Notes: generated by a model not told the origin, from the sequence alone. A DNA stretch of 64,000 nt from Sphingobium sp. (GCA_049841255.1 JASGDV010000218.1:1209-65208), one strand, 5' to 3'. Positions 2,268 to 52,170 are shown, numbered from the stretch's first letter. A program made the numbers and translations.

Positions 2268-3602
2268 ATGGAAAGCCTTTCCCGGCAATTTGCGGACTTT
2301 TGGGCGGACGCCGCTTATGAGGATTTGCCCGCGGAGGCGATCCACAGCGTCAAGCGGGTCATATTGGACAGCTTGGCGGTGGCGGCTGCGGGCGCGTGGA
2401 CCGATGAAGGCGAAATCTTCCGGCGTGGGCTGTGCAACGGCCATGACGGCGGGAAGGGGGAGGCGCTTTTGTGGGGCACGCAGAGCCGGGTGCCCGCCTC
2501 CGTCGCCGCCATCGTGAACGGCAGCAACGCGCATATTCTGGAAATGGACGATTATGGCGGTTCGGGGCATACGGGGGCCGTGGTCGTCCCTGCGGCGGTC
2601 GCGCTGGCGGAACGCGAAGGGGCGAGCGGTCGGGACCTGATCCTTGCGGTTGCGGCGGGTTACGACATGTCGACCCGCGCGCTGGCCGCCGTGGGAGGCT
2701 ATGCGGCGCATAATGGCGACGGATGGCATTCGACGGGAACATGCGGCAGCTTCGCGGCCGGGGTGGCTGGCGCGCGCATGTTGCGCCTGCCTGCGCCTGC
2801 CTTTGCCCATGCCATCGGCATCGCGGGCACCTTCACCGGCGGAATCTGGGCCTTTGCCGTCGAAGGGGCGATGGCGAAACGCTATCATGCGGGCCGCGCC
2901 GCCGAGAGCGGGGTGACGGGCGCGCTGTTGGCGCAGGCCGGGATGACGGGGCCGGAGCAGATATTCGAAGCGCCCTTCGGCGGCTTCCTCAGCAGCTTTG
3001 CGAAGGGGCATAATGTTCCCGAAGCCCTGACGGCGGAGCTTGGGCGTGCGATCCGGGTCGAGGATTGCCTGAAGAGCCATGCCTGCTGCCTTGGGCTTTA
3101 CCCGCCCATCGATGCCTTGCTGGACCTGATGCGCGGGAGGTCTCTCGATTGGCGGCGGATCGAACGGATGGAGATTCATGCGCCCGCCGATTATGTCGCG
3201 CTGTTCGACCGGCCCCATGCGTCCAATCTTCTGGAAGCGCAGTTCAGCACGCAATATTGCCTGGCGGTGGCGGCCATGGATGGCGAGGCCGGAATAAGGC
3301 AGTTCCAGCCGCTCAGGATAAAGGATGGCGATGTCGCCCGGCTGATGGAGGCGACGAGCGTTCACCTGCTGGATGAGGGAGAGGCCCGCCTTGTCGTTCA
3401 TATGGCCGATGGAGAGACATGGCGGCAGCCTTTGCCGACCGTCTATCCGCCGGTTTCCGACGAGCGCCTGTTCGCCAAGGTGTCGAGCCTTTTGCTGGAC
3501 CGGCTGGGCGATGCGCGGGTCGGCAGGCTTTGCGACAGGGTGATGGAACTGGAACGGGAAGAGAATATCCGCGATCTGGTCAATCTGCTGGCGATTGCAT
3601 AG
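2268..3602 (+). CDS. MmgE/PrpD family protein (2-methylcitrate dehydratase / iminodisuccinate epimerase / cis-aconitate decarboxylase superfamily)
   Basis: N-terminal pattern FADFWADAAYEDLPAEAIHSVKRVILDSLAVAAAG and GSNAHILEMDDY are typical of the family. ATG 2268 is preceded by GAGGAAG. Alternative start TTG 2256 overlaps the upstream stop. Confidence 0.85.
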   Translation: MESLSRQFADFWADAAYEDLPAEAIHSVKRVILDSLAVAAAGAWTDEGEIFRRGLCNGHDGGKGEALLWGTQSRVPASVAAIVNGSNAHILEMDDYGGSGHTGAVVVPAAVALAEREGASGRDLILAVAAGYDMSTRALAAVGGYAAHNGDGWHSTGTCGSFAAGVAGARMLRLPAPAFAHAIGIAGTFTGGIWAFAVEGAMAKRYHAGRAAESGVTGALLAQAGMTGPEQIFEAPFGGFLSSFAKGHNVPEALTAELGRAIRVEDCLKSHACCLGLYPPIDALLDLMRGRSLDWRRIERMEIHAPADYVALFDRPHASNLLEAQFSTQYCLAVAAMDGEAGIRQFQPLRIKDGDVARLMEATSVHLLDEGEARLVVHMADGETWRQPLPTVYPPVSDERLFAKVSSLLLDRLGDARVGRLCDRVMELEREENIRDLVNLLAIA

Positions 3603-12874: not shown

Positions 12875-14519
12875 GCGCATCGCTGTTTTGGGACTGCTGG
12901 CGCTGCCCTTTGCCGCTGAGGCATCGGTGGCGCCGGACAGCGCGCTTCATGCCTATGCGCGCGCGCGGCTGGCCGATGGAGATGGGGCATCCCCGCTGGC
13001 GGTCGCGAATTACAGGCTGGCGCTGGACGACGATCCGGCCAGTCCTGCCATCGCGCGGCGGTCCTATCTTCGCGCGCTGGAAAGCGGCGATTTTCCTTTG
13101 GCGCTGCGATCCGCGCGACTGCTGGACGCGGCGGGCCTGTTGCCGCGCGACGGGACGCTGCTGTATATCGGCGAGGCCCTCGCTCGCAAGGATTGGGCGG
13201 GGGCGCGGGCATGGACGGACCGCATGGCGGAGGAGGGCAATTTCGCCTTTCTCGCGCCGCTTGTGCGAAGCTGGATTTCGCTGGGCGAAGGGAATTATGC
13301 CGCGCCCATCCTTGTCGCGAAGAATCGTCCTGATGCGCTGGCGCGGCGCTATCTGGATGAGCAGGTCGCCTTGCAGGCCCTGGCGCGGGGAGATGTCGGG
13401 GCGGCGCTGCCCGCCATTCAGGGCGCCCTTGCCATGCGCGCCAACGATCAGGATGCCTTGCGTCTGACCTTTGCCGCGCAACTGGCCAATCTGCGCGCGA
13501 CGGAGCAGGCGCTTGCCCTTCTGCCGGACGATGAAGCGAATTTCGCTCTGGCGCGCGCCGACATTCAGAAAGGACGAAGCAAGAGGGTGCGCCGGGAAGG
13601 CGCGCCACTGACGCCTGCTCAGGGCTTCGGACACCTGCTGGCGCGGCTGGCCGTGGATGCGGATGCGATGGAAGGAGGCGGGAATCTGGCGGTCCGGCTG
13701 GCGCGCATCGCGACCTTTGCCGATCCGGGTGCGGAAAGCGGCATCGTGGTTGCGCGTCTGCTGACCGAAAACGGCAATCCGGCCATGGGCATGGCCGAAG
13801 CGCGCAAGGTGCCTGTTACCGCCTATCATGGCGCATTGGCGCAGGCGGAACTGGTCGCCGCCATGGCTGAGGCGGGGCAGGATGACGCCGCCATCGCGCT
13901 GGCGCGGTCCATGGCGCAAGCGCCTCACGCCGAAGCCGAGCGTTTCGTGCGCCTTGGCAGCCTGCTGGCGGGCCGGAAGGATTTTGACGGCGCGGTGGAA
14001 GCATTCCGTGCCGCGCAGACGCATTTCCCTTCCGATTCCGTCCCCTGGACGCTGCTGCTGTTCGAAGGCAGCGCGCTGGAGCAGGGTAAACGGTGGGAGG
14101 AAGCCCGCGCCGTGCTGGAACGCGCGGCGAAGATCGCGCCGAATGAGCCGATGATATTGAATTATCTTGGCTATGCGCAGATCGAACGGCGGCAGAATGT
14201 GGATGAAGCGTTGGCATTGTTGAAGAAGGCCAGCAGTCTGAAGCCGGACGATCCGTCGATCACGGACTCGCTGGGCTGGGCGCAGTTCGTCGCGGGACAT
14301 GTGGAAGCGGCCGTCCCGGTGCTGGAAAAGGCGGCGGCAGGCGCGCCGGGCGATGCGACGATCAACGAGCATTTGGGGGATGCCTTGTGGGCGGCGGGGC
14401 GTCGTTATGAAGCGCGTTATGCATGGAAGGCGGCGGCTGCCTTCGCGGAGGGCGCGGTGGCCGAACGGCTGGCGGCGAAAGCGAGGGAAGGCATGAAGCC
14501 CGAATATGCCGCTCCTTGA
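12867..14519 (+). CDS. Secreted tetratricopeptide-repeat protein (start codon uncertain)
   Basis: TPR-like repeats run throughout, and a signal-peptide-like N-terminus ([18 protein letters not shown]) sits directly after the ETF-QO stop. There is no ATG/GTG in frame there. Candidate starts are ATA 12867, ATC 12861 and TTG 12888. Confidence 0.65.
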
Positions 14520-24814: not shown

Positions 24815-24932
24815 ACCCGTTCGTTTCGAGCCCTTCGACTGCCTGCCAAGGCAGGCGCTCAGGACAGGCTAAAGTCGAGAAACGGGTAGCGAAGGTCTGC
24901 CGTTTCTCGACTACGCTCGAAACGAACGGCGG
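24815..24932. repeat. Family-A inverted doublet (REPIN-like), nested hairpins
   Basis: ccgttcgtttcgagc (24818-24832) pairs perfectly with gctcgaaacgaacgg (24915-24929). The inner pair is tcgagaaacgg / ccgtttctcga. There is also a gcctgccaaggcaggc hairpin. Confidence 0.8.
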
Positions 24933-29926: not shown

Positions 29927-30001
29927 TCCCCCTCACCCAGCTACGACTAGGGCAGCAAGCTGCCTAAGTCTCCACAACCCTCTCCCCTATGGGGCGAGAG
30001 G
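29927..30001. repeat. Family-B dispersed repeat, copy 1 (two GC-rich hairpins)
   Basis: tccccctcacccagctacgactagggcagcaagctgcctaagtctccacaaccctctcccctatggggcgagagg. It matches copy 2 at 68/72 (hand count). Confidence 0.8.
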
Positions 30002-38398: not shown

Positions 38399-39304
38399 TC
38401 AGTCCACCCAGTCGAGGCCGATGTCGCGATAGATGCCGCGATCCTCCTCCCAATCCTCCTTCACCTTGACGTGGAGGTAGAGGTGGACCTTGCAGCCCAG
38501 CAGGATCGCCAGTTCGGCGCGCGCCTTCGAGCCGATTTCCTTGAGACGCTGGCCGCGCTTGCCCAGCACGATGGCGCGCTGGGTGGGGCGGGCGACGAGG
38601 ATCTGCTGGTGGATTTCGACCGATCCGTCCTCCCGCTCGGAATATTTCTCCGTGTCGACGGCAGCGGCATAGGGTAGTTCGGCGTGAAGCTGGTGATAGA
38701 GCTGTTCGCGCGTGATCTCGGCCGCCAGCATCCGGTCGGTGGCGTCGGACACCTGATCCTCCGGGAAGTGCCACGGTCCTTCCGGCATGGCGGCGGCGAA
38801 GGCGGACTTGAGTTCAGGCAGGCCGTCGCCGGTCGCGGCGCTCACGAAGAAGATTTCCTCAAAGCCCAGCGCGTCGTTCAGCTTCTGCGTGTGGACGAGC
38901 AGCTTGTCCTTGGCGGCGATGTCGACCTTGTTCAGGACCAGCCATTTGCGTTCGGAGCGGGCCGACAGCGCCTCGATGATCGGTTCCACCTTGGGGCCGA
39001 GCCCTGCCTTGCCATCGACGATCAGCGCGATCAGGTCCGCGCCCTGCGCCCCGCCCCACGCCGCCTGCACCATGGCGCGGTCGAGCCGCCGCCGGGGTGC
39101 GAAGATGCCGGGGGTGTCGACCAGCACGATCTGCGCGTCACCCTCGATCGCGACGCCCATGACGCGGGTTCGGGTGGTTTGCGCCTTGGGGCTGGTGATC
39201 GCCACCTTCTGCCCCACCAGCGCGTTGACGAGCGTGGACTTGCCGGCATTGGGAGCGCCCACGATGGCGACCACGCCGCAGCGCTGGGTGTCTAAAGCTT
39301 CCAA
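38399..39304 (-). CDS. era: GTPase Era
   Basis: G1 GAPNAGKST, G3 DTPG, G4 NKVD and a C-terminal KH domain. TTG start at 39304, 6 nt after GGAG. Confidence 0.95.
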   Translation of the reverse strand: MEALDTQRCGVVAIVGAPNAGKSTLVNALVGQKVAITSPKAQTTRTRVMGVAIEGDAQIVLVDTPGIFAPRRRLDRAMVQAAWGGAQGADLIALIVDGKAGLGPKVEPIIEALSARSERKWLVLNKVDIAAKDKLLVHTQKLNDALGFEEIFFVSAATGDGLPELKSAFAAAMPEGPWHFPEDQVSDATDRMLAAEITREQLYHQLHAELPYAAAVDTEKYSEREDGSVEIHQQILVARPTQRAIVLGKRGQRLKEIGSKARAELAILLGCKVHLYLHVKVKEDWEEDRGIYRDIGLDWVD

Positions 39305-39310
39305 ATTATA

Positions 39311-39680
39311 CTCCGTTCGCGCTGAGCCTGTCGAAGCGCCTTACTTTTCCTTGCGGGATTGTGCCAAGGCGGAAATCAATTGCCAATCTTCGCGGATGAG
39401 CTCGAGTTTCTTGGCGCGGCTCCAGCCCTTGATCCGGTGTTCGGCTTCCAGCGCCTCCATACGGGTTCCGAACTGCTGCGACCAGACCAGTTTTGCGGGG
39501 CGGCGATTTTGCGTGTGACCGGCGAGCGTTCCAGCTTCATGTTGGGCGATGCGGGTTTGCAAGTCATCCGTATGGCCTACATAAAAACTTCGGTCGATGC
39601 AGTGAAGCATATAGGTCCAGAAGGGCATGGGTTCGCTCGAAAAGAAGAAAAGCCCTTCGACAGGTTCAGGGCGAACGGGG
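39311..39680 (-). mobile_element. GIY-YIG ORF bracketed by imperfect inverted repeats of the CCGTTCG..TCGAAG family (candidate autonomous unit)
   Basis: 39313-39350 matches the reverse complement of 39641-39678 at 24/28 in the core and 30/38 extended (hand count). The unit is inserted exactly between the rnc stop and the era start. Confidence 0.5.
39341..39628 (-). CDS. GIY-YIG nuclease family protein (COG2827/UPF0213-like), 95 aa
   Basis: MPFWTYMLHCIDRSFYVGHTDDLQTRIAQHE...EAEHRIKGWSRAKK carries the GIY..YxG..R..E signature. The longer track ORF extension is a translation of repeat DNA and the rnc 3' end. Confidence 0.75.
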   Translation of the reverse strand: MPFWTYMLHCIDRSFYVGHTDDLQTRIAQHEAGTLAGHTQNRRPAKLVWSQQFGTRMEALEAEHRIKGWSRAKKLELIREDWQLISALAQSRKEK

Positions 39681-39693
39681 AAGGGTGGTCTTT

Positions 39694-40365
39694 TCAGCCC
39701 GCCAGCTTCTCCAGCAGCGCCTTGGCCGCCGCCGTTTCGGCTTCCTGCTTGGAGCCGCCGGTCGCGCTGGCCTCGCCCGCGCCCTTGATCGAGACGGTGA
39801 CGGTGAAACGTAGCGCGTGGTGCGGGCCGGAGCGGTCCGTCATCGCATATTCGGGCGGCTTGCGCTTGTTCGCCGCCGCCCATTCCTGAAGCGCGGACTT
39901 GGGATGGCGGGGCGCGCTGGTCTGGGTGTCCACGCGGTCGCCCCAGAGACGGCGGACGAGGGCGCGCGCTTCCTCCAGCCCGCCTTCCAGATAGAGCGCG
40001 CCGATCAACGCCTCCATCACGTCGCCCAGCACATTGTCGCTGTCGGTCGCGCCGTCGTCGCGGGCCTGCTTGCCCAGCACCAGATGGGCGGGGACACCTG
40101 CCCCGCGCGCGATCTCCGCGCAGGTCTCTCCGGACACCAGCGCATTGAAACGGCGGGAGAGCTTGCCTTCCGGCTCGCCCGCGAAACGCTCATAGACCCA
40201 TTCGGCGACCAGCAGGCCCAGCACGCGGTCGCCCAGAAATTCCAGTCGCTCATAATTGGCGGCGTTGGCGCTGCCATGGGTCAGCGCCTGCTGGAACCGG
40301 GCCGCGTCATGCGGCTTGCGCCCGATCAGCGCGCGGAGCCAGTTCGCCGTGTCGGGTTTGCTCAA
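39694..40365 (-). CDS. rnc: Ribonuclease III
   Basis: RNase III signature ERLEFLGDRVLG plus a C-terminal dsRBD. The TTG start forms a TTGA overlap with the lepB stop. Confidence 0.95.
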   Translation of the reverse strand: MSKPDTANWLRALIGRKPHDAARFQQALTHGSANAANYERLEFLGDRVLGLLVAEWVYERFAGEPEGKLSRRFNALVSGETCAEIARGAGVPAHLVLGKQARDDGATDSDNVLGDVMEALIGALYLEGGLEEARALVRRLWGDRVDTQTSAPRHPKSALQEWAAANKRKPPEYAMTDRSGPHHALRFTVTVSIKGAGEASATGGSKQEAETAAAKALLEKLAG

Positions 40366-42954: not shown

Positions 42955-43029
42955 TCCCCCTCACCCAGCTACGACTAAGGCAGCAAGCTGCCCAAGTCTC
43001 CGCAACCCTCTCCCCCATGGGGCGAGGGA
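42955..43029. repeat. Family-B dispersed repeat, copy 2
   Basis: Same orientation as copy 1. It contains the ggcagc-aa-gctgcc and cctctcccc..ggggcgagg hairpins. Confidence 0.8.
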
Positions 43030-48784: not shown

Positions 48785-48898
48785 CTCACTCCGTTCGCCC
48801 TGAGCTTTTCGAAGGGCTTCATCGAACGCAGTGAGGGGCCTCCGCTACGCTCAGGCAAGGGCTTCGACTTCGCTCAGCCCGAACGGATTGGAAGTGAG
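48785..48898. repeat. Family-A inverted doublet (REPIN-like) between mce and mcm
   Basis: ctcactccgttcgccctgagcttttcgaagggc ... gcttcgacttcgctcagcccgaacggattggaagtgag. The ends are inverted copies of the unit that flanks the GIY-YIG gene. Confidence 0.8.
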
Positions 48899-52056: not shown

Positions 52057-52170
52057 ACTCCCGTTTGCCCTGTTCGAACGAGCCGCTTGTCTCGCTCGAA
52101 TATCGAAGGGCTGCACTTCTTCTTCCAGGAGGAAGGACGGGGCTTAAGCTCAGCCCGAACGGGTTGAGGG
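52057..52170. repeat. Family-A inverted doublet (REPIN-like) between bioB and pccA
   Basis: ctcccgtttgccctg...tcgaagggc ... gctcagcccgaacgggttgaggg. cccgtttg pairs with cgaacggg with one mismatch. Confidence 0.7.

Follow-up and report, generated by a model that had tools for sequence, protein, structure and literature searches.

A GIY-YIG nuclease gene bracketed by inverted REP-like units in the rnc-era operon of Sphingobium: a candidate nuclease-repeat partnership

Background

What is a small nuclease gene, bracketed by inverted repeats, doing between rnc and era? The question is raised by a stretch of 64,000 nt from Sphingobium sp. (GCA_049841255.1, JASGDV010000218.1:1209-65208; the whole stretch is called the window below, and positions are counted from its first letter), in which a 389-nt insert (39305-39693) carries a 95-codon open reading frame (ORF) of GIY-YIG type on the operon strand. 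The whole element (39313-39678) is 366 bp long and is made up of the nuclease gene between two inverted units, the inverted arms (39313-39346 and 39645-39678) being 34 nt each and 85% complementary. An earlier note on this DNA had described the insert, its ORF and the bracketing repeats, all of which our analysis bore out. It had likened the arrangement to repetitive extragenic palindromic (REP) elements and their inverted doublets (REPINs), which are linked to a REP-associated tyrosine transposase (RAYT), with a GIY-YIG enzyme in the place of the transposase, and had not known it as an established system. In agreement with the latter point, the full-text literature that could be searched, with subscription journals outside its coverage, holds no description of an association of GIY-YIG, YhbQ, UPF0213 or COG2827 genes with REP-like or terminal inverted repeats.

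The intergenic DNA of bacteria is full of REP-like repeats, but most of their families outside the RAYT-linked ones have no known candidate spreader, and here a widespread repeat is paired with a specific enzyme of another catalytic class. We consider the chances evenly balanced that the nuclease and the REP-like hairpin family form a partnership, that is, a REPIN/RAYT architecture built on a GIY-YIG nuclease of the Slx1/YhbQ type and not on an HUH tyrosine transposase.

Association of the repeat unit with the nuclease gene

A one-genome-per-species scan returned 80 loci, and the flank statistics given here use 84 loci encoding the GIY-YIG clade. The loci span Sphingomonadales, Beta- and Gammaproteobacteria, Chloroflexi, Gemmatimonas and Armatimonadetes. 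Flanks were scored with a profile of the unit, both sides being counted when a forward unit lay at most 120 nt upstream and a reverse unit at most 120 nt downstream. Units were found on both sides, at fixed distances, in 64 of the 84 loci, and at least one arm was found in 79. The REPIN/RAYT-like layout with a GIY-YIG enzyme is thus a recurrent one, and most of the checks proposed in the earlier note, among them that of the flanks of GIY-YIG copies, favour its reading.

What recurs, in many genomes and in differing contexts, is a package of a unit, 24-28 nt, the ORF and an inverted unit, with a total of about 358-392 bp. S. fuliginis has the same rnc-GIY-era order with matching arms as the window; in Sphingomonas cavernae a 71%-identical gene lies between lpdA-like and amidohydrolase genes and is bracketed likewise; and in Methylococcales the ORFs of different copies are 78-85% identical while their flanks are unrelated. 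The association can also be seen in database proteins, where over-long members of the nuclease family run into the strings PFVLSLSK, VRPELVEG, FDKLRTNG, LRQAQDER or PSTSSGRTG. These peptides are six-frame translations of one unit, CCGTTCGTCCTGAGCYTGTCGAAGGAC, and other forms of them are FDKLRANG and PFVLSLSKHE.

The arms also vary together with the gene that they enclose. Arm identity is 83% within one element and 70% between elements (none of 5000 permutations reached this), and the stem dinucleotide is common to both arms in 37 of 58 elements, compared to 22% expected. Among Sphingobium orthologues the arm cores are 93% identical despite saturated synonymous sites. Particular gene lineages come with a composite form of the unit, whose loop contains a second, nested hairpin; of the two paralogues in Sphingobium sp. 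YR768, the rnc-era copy has canonical arms and the other copy composite ones. Flanking units are missing from YhbQ-like relatives that lack the KGWSRAKK motif of the clade and are located on a Cupriavidus megaplasmid and a Xanthomonas plasmid.

Could REP-like units simply gather in any short spacer, with the GIY-YIG gene merely sitting in one of them? Units do cluster, and head-to-head neighbours and tandem arrays are common. However, 58 forward units lie 0-50 nt upstream of the start codon, compared to about 0.1 per kb farther off in the same loci, which is roughly 120 times the background. This density comes with fixed spacing and orientation and holds across phyla and contexts, the arms co-vary, and related nucleases outside the clade are without units. 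Such a chance juxtaposition, to which we had left almost no probability, is excluded, and the association of the GIY-YIG clade with the repeat family is established as far as comparative data allow.

As a separate observation, the 2.8-Mb replicon of Methylobacterium bullatum (locus L164) encodes a 42%-identical nuclease with the KGWSRAKK motif, together with divergent units CCTCATCCTGAGG...CCTCGAAGGAGG whose heads point inward. This points to a presence of the repeat superfamily in Hyphomicrobiales as well, linked to the nuclease there too but arranged differently.

Structure and forms of the unit

The consensus of the unit is (Y)CCGTTCG-NNC-TGAGCYTGTCGAA-GNN-C, to which sphingomonads add a pyrimidine-rich tail. 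It describes a REP-like unit in which a CCGTTCG head is joined to a covarying stem of 5 bp with an 11-nt loop that is conserved. Mutual information is highest at two variable position pairs of the unit. Across 146 distinct units, 97.8% of the cells of the 5-bp stem are paired, compared to 79.5% in shuffles and 28-61% in slid controls, and two-sided changes are found in 136 cells compared to 40.7 in shuffles; none of the 500 shuffles reached either value. One compensated change, from CCC/GGG to CGC/GCG, is present at the window locus itself. Head-tail pairing also exists in Methylococcales, Chloroflexi and Moraxella, where the stem, read by eye, has about 10 bp including G-T pairs. We rejected folding energy as support for the isolated unit as a stable hairpin, for which the support is covariation; doublets fold as long hairpins.

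Pairs of units with heads outward fall into two size classes, namely 19 pairs of 70-144 nt without an ORF and 61 pairs of 340-452 nt with one, and none lies between (these counts, as well as those of ORF-less doublets, cover 896 kb of sampled loci). The modes of the ORF-bearing class are 358 and 366-367 nt. The unit also occurs as solo copies and in arrays, and heads-inward neighbours at 40 nt or less are common, as are tandem arrays.

Tandem head-to-tail arrays adjoin the nuclease gene in L019 (3304-3586) and L082 (2726-2923 and 3334-3479), repeating every 42 nt (7 copies) and every 48-49 nt. Hairpins nested in the loop of the unit are found in the window at 52061-52123 and in the composite units of L028, L061, L068, L075 and others, always after TG or TGAG and before TCGAA, and their inner stems covary (GAGGC/GCCTC, GCCAT/ATGGC, GGGGC/GCCCC). 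The loop of the unit may therefore be a preferred point of cleavage or insertion. Plasmid p2 of Moraxella osloensis (L167, 600-665) and 15 other Moraxella plasmids carry a nearly unchanged unit core in a spacer of AT-rich gammaproteobacterial DNA, where it forms a compact doublet whose stem has about 10 bp.

The insert between rnc and era

The gene order on the minus strand of the window is lepB, rnc, the insert and era. The rnc gene (RNase III; 39694-40365, minus strand; NCBIfam TIGR02191 RNaseIII, E=2.9e-64) ends in the TGA at 39694-39696, and the downstream operon gene era (GTPase Era; 38399-39304, minus strand; NCBIfam NF000908, E=4e-106) starts with the TTG at 39304. The nuclease ORF of 95 codons lies between them at 39341-39628 (minus strand), from the ATG at 39628 to the TAA at 39341-39343. 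A covariance model built from the 146 units matches the upstream arm, in operon-strand reading, at 39645-39680 (minus strand; 49.1 bits, E=8e-9) and its inverted copy, the downstream arm, at 39311-39346 (plus strand; 52.7 bits, E=1.3e-9). The upstream arm has its CCGTTCG head at 39678-39672, the stem GCCCT/AGGGC, the loop GAACCTGTCGA and a pyrimidine-rich tail to about 39641, and 12-16 nt separate the end of the arm (39641, or 39645 as the end of the model) from the ATG of the nuclease; in 58 other loci a unit has the same position. In the downstream arm the head is at 39313-39319 and the stem is GCGCT/AGCGC, a compensated variant of the upstream stem, and the tail overlaps the stop codon of the ORF. 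This CGC/GCG variant is common to L004 and S. faniae, while most other orthologues have CCC/GGG. Neither the insert nor the window as a whole matches any Rfam family.

The outer end of the downstream arm (CGAACGGAG) together with two flanking bases reads GGAG (39311-39314, minus strand) and stands 6 nt (39305-39310, TATAAT) before the TTG of era, for which it is the likely Shine-Dalgarno sequence. The same CGAACGGAG also terminates many other right arms ahead of the next gene. In the operon RNA the two arms are predicted to pair as an imperfect duplex of about 35 bp that encloses the nuclease ORF just downstream of rnc. Such a duplex could be a substrate of RNase III; the fold of 39300-39700 (minus strand) is unexceptional, with z = -1.4.

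The nuclease and its neighbours

Membership of the protein in the GIY-YIG superfamily is given by Pfam PF01541 (E=8.7e-17; 61.6 bits compared to a cut-off of 22.6), and no NCBIfam model matches the nuclease. In 24 sequences with 43-82% identity to the window protein, residues Y6, Y16, G18, R26, H30 and E63 do not vary, nor does the C-terminal motif K67-W69-R71-K73-K74, the clade-specific form of which is KGWSRAKK..LI. Of the solved structures, the UPF0213 proteins BH0048 (1zg2, E=3.2e-12) and EF2693 come closest, with 1ywl at E=1.6e-10 and Slx1 weaker. The AlphaFold model (predicted local distance difference test, pLDDT, of 83.7) has the three-stranded sheet flanked by helices, and its Foldseek matches are UPF0213, Slx1 or Slx1-Slx4, and the N-terminal GIY-YIG domain of UvrC. 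Identity is 31% to E. coli yhbQ and 40% to B. subtilis yazA. A C-terminal PHD/RING zinc finger of the Slx1 type is not present in the protein, which ends at residue 95 after two short helices. Its closest relatives are stand-alone domains like YhbQ and YazA, and the nuclease belongs to the Slx1/YhbQ (UPF0213) type. Among Sphingobium orthologues the ratio of nonsynonymous to synonymous substitution rates (dN/dS) is 0.07-0.18, with dS of about 0.5-2, which indicates purifying selection. Since the catalytic residues are invariant and dN/dS is this low, the gene probably encodes a functional nuclease.

Relatives are numerous among 1.84 billion cluster representatives (8,596 at E<=1e-3 and 1,211 at E<=1e-10). 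The clade itself is absent from 2.9 million viral contigs and rare on plasmids, with 28 of 72,556 records, mostly chromids.

As a survey of longest ORFs is noisy in GC-rich DNA, only those neighbours that were confirmed by tblastn or Pfam were used. A SpoU/TrmJ-type methyltransferase gene follows the nuclease gene directly in 16 loci, and Pfam finds SpoU_methylase and GIY-YIG in one ORF. In 15 of these 16 the GIY frame stays open across 60-150 nt of repeat and continues into the methyltransferase, the length of the spacer always being a multiple of three; with a one-in-three chance for each and shared ancestry ignored, the probability of this is about 8e-7. The fused ORFs (L018, L020, L028, L030-L032, L035, L036, L039, L053, L061, L068, L073, L075 and L076, with GIY at about 3001-3285 of each locus) have 350-383 residues and a linker encoded by the repeat, such as VLRDEASTGSASPQDER. 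The gene also recurs beside an RluD-type pseudouridine synthase gene and tyrS (L017, L023, L027, L043, L047, L050 and L057; L015, L048, L056 and L070), and every conserved neighbour is an RNA or translation gene. This neighbourhood may be a coincidence, an expression niche or a functional link. In practice the units lead to gene calls that are over-extended or fused, and tightly coupled operon junctions, of which rnc-era is one, are remodelled by them.

These neighbours also fit a domesticated nuclease, an ancient insertion that would have become a host gene with a role in the DNA damage response or RNA metabolism and with the units as expression signals or relics. The arms would then be, for example, a long-range stem processed by RNase III and the Shine-Dalgarno sequence of era, and the dispersed units would spread or decay independently of the protein. 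We regard this explanation as rather unlikely. It accounts for the conserved positions beside rnc/era, the methyltransferase, the pseudouridine synthase and tyrS, for the in-frame fusions and the strong purifying selection, and for the pairing of the arms around the ORF and the GGAG ahead of era. E. coli YhbQ is moreover annotated as a DNA damage response exodeoxyribonuclease, and in Caulobacter one of three small COG2827 genes has an SOS box, with no more noted there (PMC1839093). However, domestication leaves unexplained why the full sequence of the unit and the covariation of its stem are kept in every lineage, why the arms co-vary with the gene lineage, and why they move with the gene into new contexts. 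The gene is also dispensable, being lost in L101 and truncated in S. faniae, and the RNA fold of the whole insert is, as given above, unexceptional.

History of the rnc-era junction

The rnc-GIY-era arrangement is found in 14 of the 84 loci, and the gene copies at this position fall in at least four clades of a neighbour-joining tree, which with 95 residues has weak resolution. An Era-based scan of related metagenomic contigs gave 67 resolved rnc-era junctions. In 49 of them there is no insert and the genes abut or overlap, typically with the ATG of era over the TGA of rnc (ATGA), which confirms that the two genes are normally adjacent. The gene is present in 5 junctions, units only in 7 and other spacers in 6; among those with units only are solo downstream arms and, in L138, a 96-nt doublet without an ORF. 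All junctions of the Sphingobium clade on the Era tree are occupied except for that of L101, where Era is nearly identical to that of S. xenophagum and another repeat stands in the place of the ORF and the upstream arm. In S. faniae the last 18 or so codons of the ORF and the downstream arm are kept, the gene being truncated. In the Sphingomonas clade occupancy is patchy and occupied junctions have insert-free ones with overlapping genes as their sisters; we therefore favour repeated insertion over repeated precise loss.

The comparison of junctions among relatives that the earlier note had proposed thus yielded empty sites, ORF-less doublets, solo arms and a truncated gene, but not the target-site footprint, and the insert-free junctions show no common target sequence. 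Within Sphingobium the insert is old and syntenic, yet it is polymorphic. The gene is low-copy, with mostly vertical inheritance at few operon sites.

A history of this kind could also be that of a selfish gene of the homing type. Here the repeats would be older and moved by other means, and the GIY-YIG ORF would be a homing endonuclease gene inside a doublet, its enzyme cutting ORF-less doublets, after which repair from an ORF-bearing copy, with the units as homology arms, would spread the ORF. GIY-YIG is a classical homing-endonuclease fold, and the ORF always has a heads-outward unit on either side, in just the position of the short spacer of an ORF-less doublet; L138 holds such a doublet at the same rnc-era position. 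The patchy distribution on the Era tree and the spread of the gene copies there over at least four clades fit as well. We nevertheless find this explanation unlikely. Efficient homing into doublets should yield many similar copies, whereas genomes have many doublets and one to few, divergent, GIY copies (two in YR768), and second replicons with 4-18 units have none. The protein has 95 residues and no separate DNA-binding domain, unlike I-TevI or the Seg enzymes, and the model shows no extra domain. Homology arms of 30-40 bp are short. Long vertical descent within Sphingobium, with dN/dS of about 0.1, also speaks against it.

A candidate mechanism

We infer that the nuclease acts on the units, because the arms co-vary with the gene lineage, the arm cores remain 93% identical where dS is saturated, and structural relatives cut branched DNA; by acting on them it may mobilise or maintain the repeats. 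In the partnership that we propose, the nuclease gene would be expressed through read-through of the operon. The protein would recognise the unit, by its conserved head and the 11-nt loop on the 5-bp stem, in single-stranded or extruded DNA, and would then nick it. Repair or recombination started by the nick would copy or relocate units and doublets in trans, and occasionally the gene-carrying doublet itself would be moved in this way. Since the outer end of the downstream arm would supply the GGAG for era, insertion into this tightly coupled junction would be tolerated.

A more specific claim is that this is an unrecognised class of repeat system, in which a bare 95-residue GIY-YIG nuclease propagates and maintains phylum-spanning hairpin repeats through structure-specific nicking and host repair, its gene riding in a 366-bp doublet. 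We hold this claim tentatively, at less than an even chance. Action of the nuclease on the unit would show that nick-and-repair is enough to keep up a REPIN-like population; it would also give the poorly understood bacterial Slx1/YhbQ branch a function and make a compact hairpin-specific nuclease available. If a dedicated nuclease does drive the system, it would be the smallest autonomous-type element known and a convergent second solution to the REPIN/RAYT lifestyle.

Several points weigh against the proposed partnership. GIY-YIG enzymes are hydrolytic nucleases for which we know of no strand-transfer chemistry, and any copying step must therefore come from host repair. The isolated unit hairpin is weak, at about -4 kcal/mol with z of about -0.6. 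Neither a target-site duplication nor a shared target motif was found at the window locus or the other rnc-era insertions. Among 90 copies, taken from one genome per species, no pair in different contexts reaches 90% identity, and recent bursts are not seen. Units persist where the gene is deleted, as in L101 and S. faniae, and composite-type units mostly adjoin the gene, with few of them dispersed in a sample that is biased to gene loci. Finally, the RNA-gene neighbours and the 15 of 16 methyltransferase fusions hint at a host-integrated role.

Other copies in the window and on replicons

The covariance model finds five clear units in the window, at 39311-39346 (plus), 39645-39680 (minus), 48789-48824 (plus), 48852-48888 (minus) and 52133-52164 (minus); overall there are some 5-6 units in the 64 kb. 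The core pattern occurs 3 times in the window, with 0 expected from 100 shuffles. Three ORF-less doublets of the unit had been proposed in the earlier note, together with the statement that they lie between co-directional genes; two of them stand, and for both the statement is correct. The doublet at 48789-48888 lies heads outward in the spacer between a glyoxalase-family gene and a methylmalonyl-CoA mutase gene (38.8 and 30.0 bits) and folds as a long hairpin with z of about -2 to -2.5. Four congeners, S. baderi, S. wenxiniae, Sphingobium sp. CFD-1 and S. faniae, lack it in the orthologous spacer and have a degenerate solo arm only. In the doublet at 52061-52164 the right unit (52133-52164, 35.6 bits) is intact, and the left unit at 52061 is real, with its loop disrupted by a hairpin of about 30 nt. 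Of the congeners compared, S. faniae alone has this doublet; in S. baderi and S. wenxiniae its site is taken by a different small repeat family. Doublets come and go between species of the genus, and this turnover, together with the varied states of the rnc-era junction and the units in trans on second replicons, speaks for the proposed partnership.

The third, at 24815-24932, is a palindromic doublet of 118 nt with CCGTTCG heads, nested inverted repeats and a different core. It folds strongly (-39.4 kcal/mol, z = -7.5). We rejected it as a member of the unit family, as it scores 9.4 bits with the unit model, which is at noise level, and only the head and the palindromic layout are in common; it is a divergent or separate family and may be a sister family.

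Second replicons of Sphingobium, of about 1 Mb, have 4-18 stringent unit matches each, all outside the listed annotated features. Despite these units, no Sphingobium record is among the plasmid matches to the nuclease, and in one such strain set the gene is on a 2.7-Mb contig (P0026).

The organism of the window is a Sphingobium close to S. baderi and S. wenxiniae, with the mutase at 98-99%, LepB at 96% and PGI at 95% identity, while RNase III is visibly more diverged over the compared part. The values for LepB, PGI and RNase III indicate that these are separate species and not near-identical strains.

Two further repeats were observed. An unrelated intergenic repeat has two copies in the window, 29927-29998 and 42955-43026, that are 94% identical over 72 nt (TCCCCCTCACCCAGCTACGACTAGGGCAGCAAGCTGCC...CCCTCTCCCC.ATGGGGCGAG). 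Another palindromic family (CGTCATGCTGAACTTGTTTCAGCATCC... and its inverse; GTCATCCCAGCGAATGCTGGGATC in L101) is found in the rnc-era spacers of L103 and L101 and at about 13160-13330 of the S. baderi and S. wenxiniae loci L168 and L169. Differing repeat families appear to replace one another at intergenic hot spots that elsewhere hold units of the GIY type.

Comparison with known systems

Among nucleases, the best sequence and fold matches are to Slx1 and to YhbQ and YazA (UPF0213), represented by 1zg2, 1ywl and the Slx1 structures. Going by the title of PDB entry 6seh, Slx1 cuts branched DNA substrates, which by analogy suggests a route to the recognition of hairpin repeats. In contrast to Slx1, the protein described here has no zinc-finger domain and no Slx4 partner, and the YhbQ-like relatives outside the clade differ in having no flanking units. 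GIY-YIG homing endonucleases such as I-TevI and the T4 Seg enzymes share with it a GIY-YIG catalytic domain in a small, sporadic insert. However, they have a long linker, DNA-binding domains and one conserved gene as target, whereas here a bare catalytic domain with a basic helix is tied to a dispersed repeat.

Among mobile elements, insertion sequences (IS) and miniature inverted-repeat transposable elements also have terminal inverted repeats around one small gene and a discrete ORF-less class (here 70-144 compared to 340-452 nt). What sets our element apart is that none of the known transposase folds (DDE, serine, tyrosine or HUH) is present, that a target-site duplication was looked for and not found, and that multi-copy identical autonomous elements were not seen. 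The smallest known IS have about 600-700 bp, and the element here, with about 366 bp, is well below this. Elements of the IS200/IS605 group are likewise very small, with hairpin-forming ends and no target duplication, but their ends are not mutual inverted repeats and their HUH transposase forms covalent 5'-phosphotyrosine intermediates, to which we know of nothing comparable in GIY-YIG enzymes. Rickettsia palindromic elements insert in frame into genes, and in the GIY-methyltransferase fused ORFs the palindromic repeat is similarly translated within a reading frame; the difference is that here the repeat is a linker that joins two otherwise separate genes and always has a length that is a multiple of three.

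The closest parallel is REPIN/RAYT. No RAYT-like sequence was found in the 896 kb of loci, which is a weak test made with an E. coli RayT query. The two systems have in common an extragenic palindromic unit that is short and keeps its head conserved, and a low-copy, largely vertical enzyme gene that is flanked by two inverted units and whose lineage co-varies with the repeat subtype; neither has an evident target-site duplication. In the sampled loci the unit also forms inverted doublets that are dispersed in spacers, as REPINs are. They differ in the enzyme, a 95-residue GIY-YIG hydrolytic nuclease here and an HUH Y1 transposase there, and in the unit, whose head is (Y)CCGTTCG and not GTAG or CGTC and whose stem, with 5 bp in sphingomonads and about 10 bp in Methylococcales and Moraxella, carries the conserved 11-nt loop. 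Copy density, at about 5-6 units per 64 kb, also seems lower here. The comparison supports the conclusion that the architecture matches REPIN/RAYT in all points but the class of the enzyme and the sequence of the unit.

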